This document shows, piece after piece, positions 50,207 to 59,399 of a DNA stretch of 64,000 nucleotides. The first letter of the stretch is position 1, and each line of letters begins with the position of its first letter. A program made the position numbers and the translations under genes. The stretch is from positions 288,001 through 352,000 of the forward strand of contig CAVXWP010000002.1 of the NCBI GenBank assembly GCA_963765495.1. Direction: 5' to 3'. Below the pieces are notes generated by a model. The model had not been told where the DNA came from. It saw only the letters and a program-made list of their open reading frames with translations, and searched no databases. Source of the stretch: Blastocatellia bacterium. Its GTDB lineage: Bacteria > Acidobacteriota > Blastocatellia > UBA7656.

Positions 50207-50962
50207 TCATCCGCTACTAAGGCGGCGGGCAATCAGGCTGTAAACAGATGCATTGAAGACCAGCCCGATATGCGTTCCCGGAACTTCAAAATCTGTCTCC
50301 GTCTCATCGTTGATGCAAAAACGCCAATCCACTACGCCGTCTGTCCTTGTGTAAACGGCGGTTTGGCGAATCGATTCCGGGAAAGGCACTTCAAGAGCCG
50401 ACACGGCATCGCATCCGCAATGGCCGGTGTAACAACCGGGCGGTGTGTTATCCGGGCGTGTGCGCTTTATGCGGGCGCGCACCACTTTCGACATTTCAAG
50501 TACTGCCGGGTGTGAACGTATGCCGCGAAAGGGCGACCCCAGCGTTATCACCGATTGGACGCGTTCGGGAAAAAGCATTGCGGCAGATCGAGCCAGTATC
50601 CCGCCCAGGCTGTGGCCTATCAAATGCACCCTGCCACCCGTTTCTACAGTGGCTTTTTCAATCGTCTCCGAGAGACGATCTACCAGCAAATCCAGGCAAT
50701 CGGCGTTGCGGCCTATGCGCGACATATAAGGGCGATAACCTATGCGCCGGAGCCACCAGAAAAGCTCTTGAAGGTAAAGATCGGTTCCCATAAATCCCGG
50801 GATGACTACGACAGCCGAGCGGTCCCCGCGCGGCACTCCAAGCCCGTAAAAGACGGGCGAAGACCTGAGCGCCAGCCAGTCAAACCCGACAAGGCTTTCC
50901 ATCCACAGAGGTCGTTTTGCAGGTTTCAGGTCTTTGTAGAAAGTCTTCGGAGGTGCGGGCAT
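50207..50962 (-). CDS. Lipase/esterase (alpha/beta hydrolase)
   Basis: VIPGF oxyanion, LIGHSLGG, ITLGSP, DGVV, THIGL. Confidence 0.88.
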   Translation of the reverse strand: MPAPPKTFYKDLKPAKRPLWMESLVGFDWLALRSSPVFYGLGVPRGDRSAVVVIPGFMGTDLYLQELFWWLRRIGYRPYMSRIGRNADCLDLLVDRLSETIEKATVETGGRVHLIGHSLGGILARSAAMLFPERVQSVITLGSPFRGIRSHPAVLEMSKVVRARIKRTRPDNTPPGCYTGHCGCDAVSALEVPFPESIRQTAVYTRTDGVVDWRFCINDETETDFEVPGTHIGLVFNASVYSLIARRLSSG

Positions 50963-51033
50963 TCTTTATCCTCAAGTGTCAAATTTGATCCCAGAACCTC
51001 ACGCTCAGAATTTCACGCTTCGGCCTGCGCGCC

Positions 51034-52482
51034 TTACCGCCCTGCCCTTGCCTGCTTCACAATCCGGGGCTTGATCTCAGGCACTCCGGCCTTCTCGCGC
51101 AACTCAACGAAAGAGGCGTCCAAAAATTCCTTGAGCCGCTCTACATCCGGCATCGCCTGCGTGTCGGATGACAAGCCGAAATAGAGTTTCTGGTCATAGC
51201 TCATAATAGCGCAACCGACGCCTATCGCATAGCCTACGGGGACATAAGGATAATATGCGATCATGCGTTTGCCCATAGCATAGAGCGGGACTTGCGGGCC
51301 GGGTACGTTTGTCGAAACCATATTGAAGGGCGGAATCGGGGTGGTTGCAAGCGCCCCCAACAGCGCCTGTACAGAAGCGGGAAGAATGCCCATCAGTGTT
51401 GTGCCGAGATTCATTCCTTCGGCCACCCGCGTCGCCTTCATCGATCCTGTCTTTTCGTTTATATACCGAAATCGCTTGAGCGGGTCTTTCATGCTCAGAG
51501 GGATTTCGACCGGCAGCATCGAGACGAGATTTCCGAGCGCGCCGCGTTTCTCTTCCTGACGCATGCTGACCGGGACCATCACTCGCAGGTTGCGCCCTCT
51601 CGTCCTCTGGCCGTGCATCTCTACATATCGAGATACCGCGCCCGAAAGCACGGTTAAAACAACATCGTTGACCGTGCCGCCCAGGGCTGCGCGTATGGCT
51701 CTCGCTTCGGCAAATGAGAACTCGCTCCAGACAAGCTTTTTCTCGCCCGAACATGGGCGATTGAATGGAAGCAGCGAAACCGGAGATGAAACGGTCGGAA
51801 GCAGATTTGTGAGCGACCCCATCGACCCGCCTGACGGCCGCTTTGCCATAGCCTGAGTCAGACTCAGCAACCCGTTTTGAAATTCCATCCAGCGATTCAT
51901 CCCCTCCTGCATACCGCCCAGCAACGAATCGAAAAACCTTCTCGTAGGATCGGGCCGAGGCAGCGGCGGTATGGATTCGGGCTTAACAGGGGGCTGTGCT
52001 TTGGGCGAAATATCGAGCACGACTTTCAAAAGATCAACGCCCGAGACTCCATCCACCATGCAATGATGAACTCTTGCGATCATCGCCGTGCGATTGCCTT
52101 CCAGACCATAGACCAGATAGATGTCCCATAGCGGTTTGCCGCGACCCATCATCGGAGTGAGTATCTTTCCGGCAAGCTCTATCAGTTGCTCTTCGGTGCC
52201 GGGCGATTCGATCTGCATCTTGAAGATGTGGCGATTGATGTCGAATTCGGTATCGAATTCCCACGTGGGATGGGCCAGATTGAAAGGGTCGGGAACGATC
52301 TTTTGCTGATAGCGCGGGATCATGTGAAGTTTCGAAGCGACCATCTTCACAAAACGGTCGAAAGAGATTTTACCGTCGAAGACGCTCACGCTGCCTATGT
52401 GCATAGGCGCTTCCTTCTTCTCGAAATAGAGGAAGCTCGCATCCATCGAGGTAAGGCGGCGATTGAGATTGCTCTGTACCAT
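51034..52482 (-). CDS. Wax ester synthase/acyl-CoA:diacylglycerol acyltransferase (WS/DGAT)
   Basis: [17 protein letters not shown], catalytic HHCMVDG (HHxxxDG), GTVNDV, PVSMR, NVPGP. Confidence 0.95.
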
Positions 52483-52558
52483 TTAATCCTCCGGGCACCT
52501 GAGAGGCTTTCTTCGTTGACCGATTATCCGTCTCTCCGCTTGCCGATTTGCGGGGTTC

Positions 52559-53947
52559 TCACCGCTGCTCAATCGTCATTCGCATGCCGTATCTGGGGCG
52601 CAACGTTATCAGCGGTTGCATCTTTACGGGATGATTTGGAACCAGGCGCATCTTCCAGCGCTGGGCGAATGTGGCGATTATCAATATGCCCTCCATCCAG
52701 GCAAACTGCTCGCCTATACAAAGCCTCGGACCGCTGCCAAACGGGAAATAAGCGTGCTTTGGCCGCTCGGCCCTGGCCTCTGGCCTCCACCGCTCGGGAT
52801 CGAATTTAAAAGGATCAGGATAGTATCGCTCGTTGTGGTGCATCACATACTGGCTCAACAAAACTATCGAGCCTGCCGGGATCGAGTAATCGCCTACCCT
52901 GTAAGTGCTCAACGCGCGGCGGCTCATAACCCATACGGGCGGATAGCAGCGCATGGCTTCGGTCAGGACCATCTCGGTGTAAGGCAATCGGGGCACGTCA
53001 TCAACCGTAGGCAATCGGCCCGCGAGCACCCGGTCTATTTCATCGTGGAGACGGGTTTCGACATCCCTGTTTTCCGAAAGCAGATACCACGTCCAGGTCA
53101 GGGCATTGGCCGTCGTTTCGTGCCCCGCCAGAAAGAGCGTCATCGCCTCGTCGCGCAGTTGTTCGTCAGACATTCCGCCGCCATCGCCTTCGGCATCCTG
53201 CGCAAGCAGAAGCATCGAAAGCAGATCGCCCCGGTCTTCTCCGCGCGCGCGTCGCTCTTCGATGATGCGATAGATAGTCTCATCCAGCCGCGCCCGCGCT
53301 CGCTGGACTCTGCGGTTTCCCGGAAGCGGAAGCCTGTCTAGTATCTCGGTCAAAGGAGAGGTAAAAGTCTCGAACATCTCAAGCACTTCCGTGAGCGCCT
53401 GCCCGATCTCTGCGGCTTCATTCTCGACATCGGCATCAAACAGGGTCTTTGCCACAATCGCAAGCGTGAGCCGCATCATCTCAGATGCAACGTCTAGTTT
53501 CTCGCCTTCCTGCCAGCGGTCACGAGTGCGAGCGGCATACTCAGACATAGTCTCGGCATACATGGCGATGCGCTGTTTGTGAAAGGCCGGCTGCGAAAGC
53601 CTCCGCTGGCGGCGATGAAAATTCCCTTCGCTTGTCAGGAGGCCACGGCCAAGCACCTTCTTTGCCCGTTGCAGCCCGCGCCCTTTCAGAAAGTTCCAGT
53701 CGTGTGCAACCAGCACGTTTTGAATGTAATCAGGATGATTGAGCAAAACCGTGTGCTGCGGGCCGAGATTGAAATGGGCTATCTCTCCGTAATCGCGCGC
53801 CACCTTCATCAGGAAGCGGAGCGGGTCACGGGTCATCGCTACGATCTGGCCGCCGGGCGTACTGGTCTTTGGTCCCGGCGGCAGGTTGTTTTTTGCCGAG
53901 GCGACGGATTTGCTTTTGCCTGTCGATTTTTTTGTCCCTGTTCCCAT
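52559..53947 (-). CDS. Cytochrome P450
   Basis: AGHETT I-helix, EAMR (ExxR), FDPERW, heme motif [10 protein letters not shown]. Confidence 0.95.
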
Positions 53948-53987
53948 CTCTTCACTCCCTCCTTTCTCCTGAGGTTTGGCAGCGCGC

Positions 53988-54557
53988 TCAAGCTTCGGTG
54001 AGGCCGGTCACATCGTAAGACATGACGATCAGATCGTGTGTTCGATCATTTCTATCAATAACATAATCGGCCAGTAAAGCTTCGACTCTGAATCCGAGGC
54101 GTTCAAAGACCTGGATCGCGCCCCTCTGCTCGCTCGCCATACGGGCAACGATTTTCTGAAGCTTGAGTTGCTTGGCGAGGGCGAAAAGCTCATCGGCCAG
54201 AATGCTGCCCAACCCGTAGCCGCGCATGTCGGGGCTTATGAGCAGTTGGATTTCGCCCATGTGCCGGGTCCAGAGCAATTCGTTATGGCCGAGGCTGCCG
54301 TGGCCTACAAGCTTGCCGCCCGCTTCGACAAGTATCGTCTTGATTCTGCCCGATTCGATATTTTTCGCCCATTGCTCGACGGCTTTCTGTCTGGTTATGT
54401 CTATCGAGAGAAACAGCAGATCGTCTTCGGGCAGCGATTTGGCGAATGCGAGAAGCGCCTCCCCGTCTTCGGGCGTCATCAGACGGAAGGTCACAGCCAC
54501 ATCCTTAACCGTAGTCTTCCAGGGGTACTTTCGTTTCGAGACTGACTCTGTAGTCAT
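53988..54557 (-). CDS. GNAT-family N-acetyltransferase
   Basis: [19 protein letters not shown] acetyl-CoA loop and [10 protein letters not shown]. Confidence 0.88.
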
Positions 54558-54589
54558 TGCTCACTCCTTTGAATTGATTCGCCTTCAGT

Positions 54590-58675: not shown

Positions 58676-58703
58676 AGCATATCAGAGAAATAATCAATGT
58701 CAA
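58676..58703 (-). promoter_or_regulatory. Sigma70-type promoter for the lipid gene run
   Basis: Minus strand TTGACA-16 bp-TATGCT with an extended -10 TG. Confidence 0.6.
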
Positions 58704-58710
58704 GCACTTT

Positions 58711-58726
58711 TTTCGCAAATGCGAAA
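58711..58726. promoter_or_regulatory. Palindromic candidate operator
   Basis: TTTCGCA-AA-TGCGAAA perfect 7-2-7 inverted repeat; related TTTCGCAATCGCAGCA at 58828-58843. Confidence 0.55.
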
Positions 58727-58795
58727 TAAATTTTGTAAATTCTATATATAGGCAGTTTATAAATAACAGAAATTCAATTAGCCAAATAGTAAGAC

Positions 58796-58824
58796 TTGAA
58801 TTTAGTCGGTTTTTCGAGTATGAT
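58796..58824 (+). promoter_or_regulatory. Sigma70-type promoter for phaR
   Basis: TTGAAT-17 bp-TATGAT. Confidence 0.6.
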
Positions 58825-58928
58825 ACGTTTCGCAATCGCAGCATTCACATAATGGCTTATTTAAGAATAAGATAGCATAAAGATGCTTGAGGCAATGCCC
58901 AGAAGCGAAGAGAGTTTCAGGAGAAATT

Positions 58929-59399
58929 ATGGCAAAGAAAAAGGCTGATACAGATCGTCTTATCATCAAACGATACGGCAATCGGAGGTTATATAACACG
59001 GAGACAAGCAGTTACGTCAATTACCAGGATCTGGTCGAGTTGATACGCGGAGGGCAGGATATACAGGTAATAGACTCCCGGACCAGGGAAGATGTAACCA
59101 AGTCAATTCTTATACAACTCATACTTGAGGAAGAGAAGAATAAGAACAGCATACTTCCGCTCGAATTTCTTTTTCAGCTTATCCGGTCGCAGGAAGAATC
59201 TGTCCAGGATTTCTTCAAAAATTATCTGGCTTGGAGCTTTGATGCTTATATGAAGACAAAGCAGGAATTTGACCGGCGTTTTCGTGGCTGGATGGAGATG
59301 AGCGCCAATGCTCCTCAGATGTGGGAAAAATTCATCCCGGGAGCCGAAGCGATGAAGGAATTTTGGGGGTTGAACAAGAAAGACAGCGAGGATGAATAA
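58929..59399 (+). CDS. phaR: PhaR-family polyhydroxyalkanoate synthesis regulator
   Basis: CAGGAG RBS; N-terminal DNA-binding motif [19 protein letters not shown], then [23 protein letters not shown] and [11 protein letters not shown]. Confidence 0.9.

Follow-up and report, generated by a model that had tools for sequence, protein, structure and literature searches.

Why would a bacterium in whose genome no polyhydroxyalkanoate (PHA) synthase can be found keep PhaR, the regulator of PHA granules, beside genes for making and breaking down neutral lipids? The question is raised by positions 50207-59399 of a stretch of 64,000 nucleotides from a Blastocatellia bacterium of the phylum Acidobacteriota (assembly GCA_963765495.1, contig CAVXWP010000002.1, positions 288,001 to 352,000; this whole stretch is hereafter the window), where phaR, on the forward strand, diverges from eight reverse-strand genes with intergenic gaps of 16–136 bp. 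From the phaR side, these encode a small helical protein, a short-chain dehydrogenase/reductase (SDR), an acyl-CoA ligase, a repeat protein, a GNAT acyltransferase, a cytochrome P450, a wax ester synthase/acyl-CoA:diacylglycerol acyltransferase (WS/DGAT) and a lipase. The answer that we favour, with a probability of roughly 0.6, is that a PhaR/phasin-like module was re-coupled to neutral-lipid bodies, which would yield a self-contained operon under PhaR control to make, coat and mobilise them. The genomic facts behind this proposal are solid; what we infer from them is that PhaR senses the lipid bodies and that the two helical proteins coat them.

The locus, its putative operators and the search for a PHA synthase

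Gene identities were established from the list of open reading frames (ORFs) and their translations together with Pfam and NCBIfam profile scans. A preliminary description of this DNA had named nine genes here, with phaR divergent from eight co-oriented ones, and had noted that none of them encodes PhaC (PHA synthase), PhaE or a thiolase; all nine genes were found in their places, and the scans agree on the three absences. The features of the locus are the following:

50207..50962, reverse strand: lipase/alpha-beta hydrolase with a GHSLG motif, last gene of the operon
51034..52482, reverse strand: WS/DGAT acyltransferase (WS_DGAT_cat, WS_DGAT_C, TIGR02946; HHCMVDG motif)
52559..53947, reverse strand: stand-alone cytochrome P450 (p450, 309 bits)
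53988..54557, reverse strand: GNAT N-acyltransferase (Acetyltransf_1, 47.8 bits)
54590..55291, reverse strand: repeat coat-like protein P0001, of family A1, with four repeats of ~45 amino acids (aa); the listed ORF extends to 55309
55446..57176, reverse strand: AMP-forming long-chain fatty-acid--CoA ligase (AMP-binding, 327 bits; PRK05605, 545 bits, below its cut-off)
57193..58155, reverse strand: classical SDR (adh_short, 198.6 bits)
58186..58599, reverse strand: P0002, a small helical protein of 137 aa with which the operon begins, without Pfam match
58676..58703, reverse strand: predicted sigma-70-type operon promoter, TTGACA-16-TATGCT with TG ahead of the −10, a consensus match only
58711..58726, no strand: O1, putative PhaR operator, perfect palindrome TTTCGCA-AA-TGCGAAA
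58828..58843, no strand: O2, operator-like site TTTCGCA-AT-CGCAGCA in a conserved block, of presumed function
58929..59399, forward strand: phaR (PHB_acc_N, PHB_acc, TIGR01848); the listed ORF starts at TTG 58887

The regulator matches PHB_acc_N (PF07879) with 86.5 bits (cut-off 25) and TIGR01848 with 115.1 bits (cut-off 109.45), and reaches PHB_acc (PF05233) just at threshold (27.0 bits against 27). Its most likely start is ATG 58929, preceded by GGAG, and phaR is present in a single copy in the genome, at this locus. For the PhaR of Sinorhizobium meliloti, the portion of PMC12542648 dealing with its binding sites gives the motif WNWD2NYGCRNYGCRNH2WNW, with copies flanking the −35 of phaP promoters and validated by electrophoretic mobility shift assay. 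The half-sites of O1 are YGCR tetrads with AT-rich arms that fit this motif, with a spacer of 2 nucleotides instead of 1. The −35 box of the operon promoter follows 7 bp downstream of O1; this promoter agrees with the consensus at 10 of 12 positions, better than any other sequence within 50000-59600. The genome of 7.3 Mb contains one exact copy of O1, the one at this locus, and allowing up to one mismatch adds a single further site; the latter (C16:160814) covers part of a start codon, that of a gene for a secreted protein, and we rejected it as a member of the regulon because chance alone predicts about one site of this kind.

Conservation of the intergenic region points to the same sites. 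An alignment (A3) of 12 phaR-operon intergenic regions, with a mean identity of 44%, contains conserved islands at GTCAA (the −35, read on the reverse strand), at the invariant palindrome O1 and at a second site, TTTCGCA-NN-YGCAGCA, near phaR; the −10 block is also conserved. In the window, O2 is located just downstream of the −10-like TATGAT of a candidate phaR promoter (TTGAAT at 58796, 17 nucleotides, TATGAT at 58824), and this placement suggests autoregulation. Palindromic operators at the promoter of the coat gene and at that of phaR itself are a trait of the PhaR family that the window would share.

The WS/DGAT, of which the genome has one copy, in this locus, shows matches to WS_DGAT_cat (PF03007, 193.3 bits), WS_DGAT_C (PF06974, 92 bits) and TIGR02946 (368.2 bits, cut-off 309.95), and among proteins of the PDB it matches 7nxg (O-acyltransferase WSD, 155 bits) and 6chj (137 bits). 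Its HHxxxDG motif, described earlier as intact, reads HHCMVDG at residues 139–145 and is kept in 60 of 60 sequences. The GHSLG reported for the lipase, a protein of 251 aa with no signal peptide evident by eye, is indeed found at residues 116–120; GxSxG is kept in 52 of 52 sequences, in which S118, D208/D212 and H231 are invariant, and resemblance to the triacylglycerol (TAG) lipases 1qge, 1cvl and 1tah (E ~1e-7) is confined to residues 48–152. On another contig (G000:C9:785486-787845) there are two adjacent NAD_binding_4 genes (178 and 164 bits), possible fatty-acyl or thioester reductases that might supply fatty alcohol or aldehyde.

A genome-wide search for phaC had been set beforehand as a refutation test. 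The genome (7.30 Mb in 17 contigs, 97.94% complete, 0.19% contaminated and not closed) yielded none by any profile or by tblastn: PF07167 (PhaC_N), TIGR01838 (class I PhaC) and A4, a profile made from six acidobacterial PhaC, had no match in it, TIGR01836 (class III PhaC) had only one of 21 bits, to a generic alpha/beta hydrolase, and tblastn retrieved nothing at E ≤ 0.01 when queried with eight PhaC or PhaE-like proteins (five, then three) from PHA loci of Acidobacteriota. The same queries recover PhaC in families f2 and f6 and in genomes G004 and G201 of the samples described below, and thus served as positive controls. A partner PHA synthase, which is another trait of the PhaR family, was not returned by these genome searches; the window's PhaR is, to judge by sequence, a member of its family that appears to stand outside any PHA system.

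We dropped PF07167 as sole detector of PhaC, because it missed genes adjoining phaR in f2 genomes, and used the lineage profile A4 instead. For instance, the PhaC genes beside phaR at L141 (G037) 9643-10758 and L142 (G040) 5628-6608 are invisible to PF07167 and clear with A4; therefore, surveys of PHA synthesis in Acidobacteriota that are based on PF07167 undercount. In the same family as the window, genome G004 contains a class I-like PhaC of 594 aa (G004:C38:314-1546; PhaC_N, 251 bits) and no phaR, WS/DGAT or A1 gene.

Conservation of the locus and its counterparts in PHA loci

We followed the locus in a sample of 61 related genomes, including G000, and in two sets of loci, 20 fetched from relatives and 80 anchored on the repeat protein, which overlap and come from the same species-level collection. 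The nearest public loci and all 80 surveyed loci belong to metagenome-assembled genomes (MAGs). An ortholog of the WS/DGAT (66–79% identity) is present in 22 of the 36 same-family genomes and in all five of family f5, and phaR occurs in exactly those same 22 genomes and in four of the five of f5. The A1 repeat protein is found in 27 of the 61 genomes, all of them with that WS/DGAT. With the A4 profile, PhaC was detected in nine of the 61 (four of five in f2, four of four in f6, and G004) and in none of the 28 carrying the WS/DGAT ortholog. Sorted by regulator, 36 of the 61 genomes bear PhaR: phaR is beside or near PhaC in eight, the WS/DGAT ortholog is present in 27, and G046 is the one genome with neither.

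Gene content was then tabulated for both sets of loci. The 20 fetched loci contain phaR (20), the repeat protein (19), GNAT (18), WS/DGAT (20, truncated in L035 and split in L034) and lipase (18, the other two being at contig ends), together with SDR (9), ligase (8), the orthologous P450 (9), a different P450 (4) and the small protein (2). In the 80 anchored loci the counts are 68 for a divergent upstream phaR, 72 for GNAT, 58 for WS/DGAT and 52 for lipase, and misses away from contig ends amount to one for phaR (L116), one for GNAT (L106), one for lipase (L098) and none for WS/DGAT; any P450 is present in 55 (the orthologous form in 16, a form less than 40% identical in 40), the SDR in 41, the ligase in 29 and the small protein in 6. 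The core of the locus is phaR / coat-like protein - GNAT - (P450) - WS/DGAT - lipase, with GNAT always directly downstream of the coat-like gene, and the SDR and the ligase are accessory. Its recurrence in all 20 fetched loci and in 80 further ones puts the arrangement far beyond chance. Loss of the phaR-WS/DGAT linkage in relatives had been named as a possible refutation; the relatives keep it, as do five additional families of the phylum.

The operator travels with the genes. A copy of O1 with at most one mismatch is found at the equivalent position in 18 of the 20 fetched loci, the exceptions being the degenerate L034 and L035, and in 62 of 68 loci such a copy is no more than 500 bp away from phaR. 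One subclade (L064, at 6227, 9436 and 11150) has three to five palindromes with at most one mismatch per locus, a pattern shared by L060, L063, L066, L068, L069, L074, L075, L078, L080, L087, L088 and L112; some of the extra copies are inside the SDR, the GNAT and the upstream hydrolase-VTT-ATP-grasp genes, and they may be functional roadblock sites or merely inherited. Several loci are decayed or interrupted, with a truncated WS/DGAT abutting phaR in L035 (G027), a ligase with an internal deletion in L034 (G019), and a split P450, ligase or lipase in L018 and L021; these may be real pseudogenes or errors of MAG assembly.

For the phylum as a whole, we examined 301 Acidobacteriota genomes of at least 90% completeness, evenly drawn, and counted matches over cut-offs. 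PhaR is present in 53 and WS/DGAT in 35, and comparison of the two tables indicates that all 35 also have PhaR; the two genes are within 10 kb of each other in 15 of the 35, from six families (f1, f5, f4, f13, f34 and f36). PhaC was detected in 10 genomes by PF07167 and in 11 by A4, and it co-occurs with PhaR in 10, less than 2 kb away in eight. Among the 43 of 53 PhaR genomes without PhaC, 28 have WS/DGAT and 15 have neither. Genes of the A1 family occur in 11 genomes of this sample, in 11 of 11 within 3.6 kb of phaR and mostly at less than 1.5 kb. In family f36 (L125-L127, that is, G275, G163 and G152; also G266 and G324), phaR is 3–6 kb away from proteins of 432–1006 aa that match only the N-terminal part of WS_DGAT_cat and are 27% identical to the window enzyme; these are possibly a third PhaR cargo.

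The same module flanks PHA synthase genes in sister lineages. In G045 (f6, of the same class as the window), the order is phaR, a P0002 relative, a PhaE/phasin-like protein and two class III-like PhaC; its PhaR is 68% identical to that of the window, the palindrome is the same with one mismatch, the P0002 relative (119 aa) shows 31% identity over 78 aa (51 bits), and the PhaE/phasin-like protein (157 aa) is a sub-threshold match. In G049, a relative of P0002 occupies the same phasin position, between phaR and the PhaE-like and PhaC genes. Likewise, G201 (f34, outside the class of the window) has phaR, an A1-family protein of 193 aa, a PhaE-like protein and PhaC in this order, and its A1 relative aligns with a hhalign probability of 96.4% (E 1.3e-9 over 157 columns). 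Two other f34 genomes, G191 and G272, show the order WS/DGAT (38–40% identity) - phaR - A1-like - lipase (54–55%). A tree of 24 PhaR rows groups them by taxon and not by cargo; the protein is short, and the tree leaves many forks unresolved. On its well-supported branches, the three PhaC-linked PhaRs require at least two changes. PhaC/PhaE and WS/DGAT plus lipase would be alternative cargoes of one PhaR-operator-coat module.

The build of the two helical proteins is in keeping with a coat. P0001 has 233–239 aa, with its start most likely at ATG 55291, and begins with a Lys/Ser-rich tail (13 Lys and 17 Ser in 54 residues) that is followed by the four repeats. An AlphaFold2 model from a 32-row alignment (pLDDT 64.7) predicts a disordered tail and helices at 61–102, 107–143, 150–194 and 201–229 (29–45 residues), and in three of these four the hydrophobic moment is 2.1–3.1 standard deviations above that of shuffled sequences. 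Some members of A1 have long AKP/KPK repeats. Out of 1.84 billion, 403 representative clusters match the A1 profile at E ≤ 1e-3, and the best match of this profile among PDB sequences has an E of 0.42. When 109 distant relatives retrieved with it were scanned at E ≤ 0.01, 20 matched Phasin_2 (best 2.2e-5), 8 ApoB100_C and 4 PhaE, against a noise level of thirteen other families with one match each; one A1-like protein of f34 has a PhaE match of 21 bits, below the cut-off, and Phasin_2 has only four matches in the 61 relatives, of 18–21 bits, all of them sub-threshold and away from the locus. These results are suggestive of a remote relationship between A1 and phasins. By build and neighbourhood, both fit what is expected of a phasin, a small amphipathic helical protein encoded beside phaR and/or phaC. 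The idea that P0002 is a one-repeat paralog of P0001 was not borne out (hhalign probability 7.8%), and relatives of P0002 are found in 5 of the 61 genomes. The A1 homologs P0036, P0054 and P0094 carry the accession PF28026.1, and a recent Pfam release may already define the family.

What the operon may do

The preliminary description proposed that a PHA sensing and coating module had been coupled to a pathway to make, coat and mobilise lipid droplets. This proposal is supported: the two refutation tests named in advance that could be run on sequences, for a phaC elsewhere and for a lost linkage, both turned out in its favour. The coupling itself has direct support, because the regulator, the operator and both helical families are homologous to those of the PhaC loci in sister lineages. 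Two genes of the pathway are only accessory, namely the SDR (41 of 80 loci) and, with 29 of 80, the ligase. In the scheme that we favour, PhaR would occupy O1, beside the −35 of the operon, and O2, at its own promoter, and repress both as long as there are no inclusions. A basal level of WS/DGAT would esterify acyl-CoA, fed by the ligase where this is present, onto diacylglycerol to give TAG and/or onto an alcohol to give a wax ester-like product. The growing hydrophobic surface would then pull PhaR from DNA, as polyhydroxybutyrate granules do in the classical systems. Since hydrophobic polymers adsorb PhaR in a non-specific manner, such a draw-off is plausible: PhaR binds polyethylene, polystyrene and polylactic acid through hydrophobic interaction, as stated in the relevant part of PMC2873406. 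Derepression would supply the coat proteins, one with four amphipathic helices and the other small and helical, and more of the biosynthetic enzyme; the four-helix protein could use its basic tail to hold the bodies to DNA or anionic lipid. Fatty acids would be freed on demand by the lipase.

Several observations weigh against this reading. Both helical proteins had been called phasin-like, and their amphipathic helical build and gene context agree with the name, but neither P0001 nor P0002 has any match in Pfam or NCBIfam, and phasin models (PF09361 Phasin_2, PF05597 Phasin, PF09602 and related ones) do not match them even at E ≤ 10. A fold search of the P0001 model against the PDB gave no hit at E ≤ 0.001 (best E 1.5), and a protein-atlas search placed PhaE and Phasin_2 as the nearest named clusters only at 0.81–0.88, values under 0.9 that are leads. 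The SDR is generic as well as accessory, with no sign that it is an acyl-CoA reductase of the Acr1 type, and among the genes of the locus none is recognisable as a fatty-acyl reductase. The GNAT, a core gene, and the P450, frequent (55 of 80 loci) and present in two non-orthologous forms, are without a role in a plain TAG or wax ester scheme. The 15 of 53 phylum genomes with PhaR and neither PhaC nor WS/DGAT indicate that PhaR is not bound to these two cargoes only, and the blindness of PF07167 to the PhaC of one family shows that profile searches can overlook divergent synthases. Kinship among the genomes inflates all co-occurrence counts, which are for this reason given without P-values. Finally, no RNA run is listed as containing the locus, which is contained in one DNA run of a soil metagenome.

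The two genes that fit poorly are the starting point of another explanation, which we consider unlikely and yet serious. The product would be an ester lipid, or an oligo- or polyester, of hydroxylated fatty acids: the P450 would hydroxylate, the ligase activate and the WS/DGAT esterify the hydroxyl, giving something estolide-like or a long-chain polyester, and PhaR and the coat would serve a polymer made independently of PhaC. Most complete loci have the P450 between GNAT and WS/DGAT, and in 40 of the 80 loci this same slot is filled by a P450-flavodoxin-FAD-NAD fusion of the CYP102/BM3 type (1084 aa; e.g. L064:12609-15863). CYP102 enzymes are known for sub-terminal hydroxylation of fatty acids. 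Such a swap resembles non-orthologous displacement, which suggests that the pathway needs a P450, and the two forms hint that hydroxylated acyl chains matter. The window P450 is itself related to BM3 (~146 bits), among solved structures the SDR comes closest to a (3R)-hydroxyacyl-CoA dehydrogenase (2et6, 136 bits), and the entire regulator and coat module is common to polyester loci. However, the P450 is absent from 12 of 58 WS/DGAT loci and from the f34 loci with WS/DGAT, PhaR, A1 and lipase, and that of the window, whose PDB matches include 3dbg (254 bits), is nearest to CYP170A1 and CYP97, which are terpenoid and carotenoid enzymes, followed by CYP46 and only then by BM3. To our knowledge, moreover, no WS/DGAT polymerises. 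In its boldest and improbable form, a WS/DGAT-family enzyme fed by a hydroxylating P450 and the ligase would make a long-chain hydroxy-fatty-acid estolide or polyester that functionally replaces PHA, is sensed by PhaR and is coated by descendants of PHA-granule proteins. As for the GNAT, it has only generic relatives in the PDB, including the protein acetyltransferase 3f8k (E 1.8e-6), and that it acetylates the Lys-rich tail of the coat-like protein is speculation.

PhaR might also sense no inclusion at all. It would then be a plain local repressor responding to some soluble signal or other protein, in an operon for the remodelling or detoxification of fatty acids or membrane lipids, whose helical proteins are no coat. 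We regard this as quite unlikely, although the 15 PhaR genomes with neither cargo are in its favour, the GNAT and the P450 point to chemistry beyond storage, and rhizobial homologs of PhaR are pleiotropic regulators, as parts of PMC6201568 and PMC10888616 report. Here, PhaR would not be pleiotropic, because within the genome its operator is confined to this locus; in sister lineages, PhaC is flanked by the same PhaR, operator and helical module, and WS/DGAT and lipase are a classical pair to make and mobilise neutral lipid. That an unrecognised or unassembled PHA synthase exists, whose granules PhaR and the helical proteins serve with the WS/DGAT as an incidental neighbour, is very improbable: the genome is not closed and Pfam PhaC_N overlooked the PhaC of one acidobacterial family, but five independent genome searches were empty, the lineage profile found PhaC in 0 of 28 genomes with the WS/DGAT ortholog against 8 of 9 in f2 and f6, and the linkage to WS/DGAT is kept over six families.

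The surroundings of the locus are those of an ordinary chromosome (RNase E/G, RodA, XseA), with genes unrelated to the operon on one flank (subtilase, methyltransferase, DUF4190) and on the other (YmdB, aminotransferase). Elsewhere in the window, a forward-strand ORF of 1435 aa at 25-4332 has matches to ABC_toxin_N (185 bits) and, with 107 bits, to a neuraminidase-like domain in the Pfam scan, and is a TcA-like toxin-complex component by that scan only; at 17664-20915, on the reverse strand, there is a TPR-CHAT protein of 1083 aa (CHAT, 228 bits).

Significance and comparison with known systems

The literature that we searched, leaving aside the supplementary neighbourhood figures and tables of PMC10351704, contains no system in which phaR and WS/DGAT are arranged in this way, in agreement with the preliminary description, which knew of none. 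In passages of that same article, neutral-lipid storage in Acidobacteriota, an abundant soil phylum, is said to be a subject that 'remains unexplored'; 'PhaR' appears 0 times in its main text and 'phasin' once, for a Pseudomonadota scaffold. PhaR (pfam07879) is used as a genomic proxy for PHA producers, Acidobacteria included, in a portion of bioRxiv 10.1101/2024.12.02.626346. Since 43 of the 53 PhaR-bearing Acidobacteriota have no detectable PhaC and 28 of those 43 have WS/DGAT, this proxy would misassign the type of carbon storage in soil surveys.

If the re-coupling to neutral lipid is true, PhaR would be a general sensor of hydrophobic inclusions and not one specific to PHA, and, from the PhaR tree, it would have moved at least twice between polyester and neutral-lipid storage. 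For Acidobacteriota, the locus would also provide the first machinery that regulates and coats lipid bodies. A compact operon with regulator, operator, coat, synthase and lipase would be an attractive self-regulating module for the engineering of lipid production.

The closest known system is PhaR-PhaP-PhaC, as in Cupriavidus necator, Paracoccus denitrificans and Sinorhizobium meliloti (AniA). Both have a PhaR of the same family, divergent from a gene for a small helical protein, and palindromes of the YGCR type at the −35 of the coat promoter and at phaR, and in sister Blastocatellia the module flanks PhaC. Unlike in those bacteria, genome searches found no PhaC or PhaE here, and the cargo consists of WS/DGAT, lipase, GNAT and P450; the operator is YGCR-N2-YGCR instead of N1, the regulon is apparently one locus, and the coat proteins are outside the phasin Pfam families. 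The synthase is the same two-domain enzyme with HHxxxDG as the AtfA-type WS/DGAT of Acinetobacter, Marinobacter, Rhodococcus and Mycobacterium, yet here it is single-copy and inside a PhaR operon with its own lipase. We know of no case in those organisms where an AtfA-type enzyme is controlled by PhaR or clustered with phasin-like proteins.

In concept, the locus is also like the MLDS/MLDSR and TadA proteins of Rhodococcus, which we compared by description only. There, a lipid-droplet coat protein is co-encoded with the transcription factor that controls it, and the basic region of the droplet protein can bind nucleic acid or heparin; the protein families differ from those found here. Likewise, phasins with a histone-like tail, PhaF of Pseudomonas and PhaM of C. 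necator, combine an amphipathic domain with a Lys-rich, low-complexity tail as P0001 does, but in the latter the tail is N-terminal and rich in Lys and Ser, and the likeness is one of build. Finally, Hanisch and colleagues reportedly achieved, in 2006, the heterologous targeting of the phasin PhaP1 to triacylglycerol inclusions. By this account a phasin of PHA granules is able to coat TAG bodies, on which the reading favoured here physically depends. In that work the pairing of a PHA-granule protein with neutral lipid was engineered, whereas in the locus described here it would be natural and conserved.

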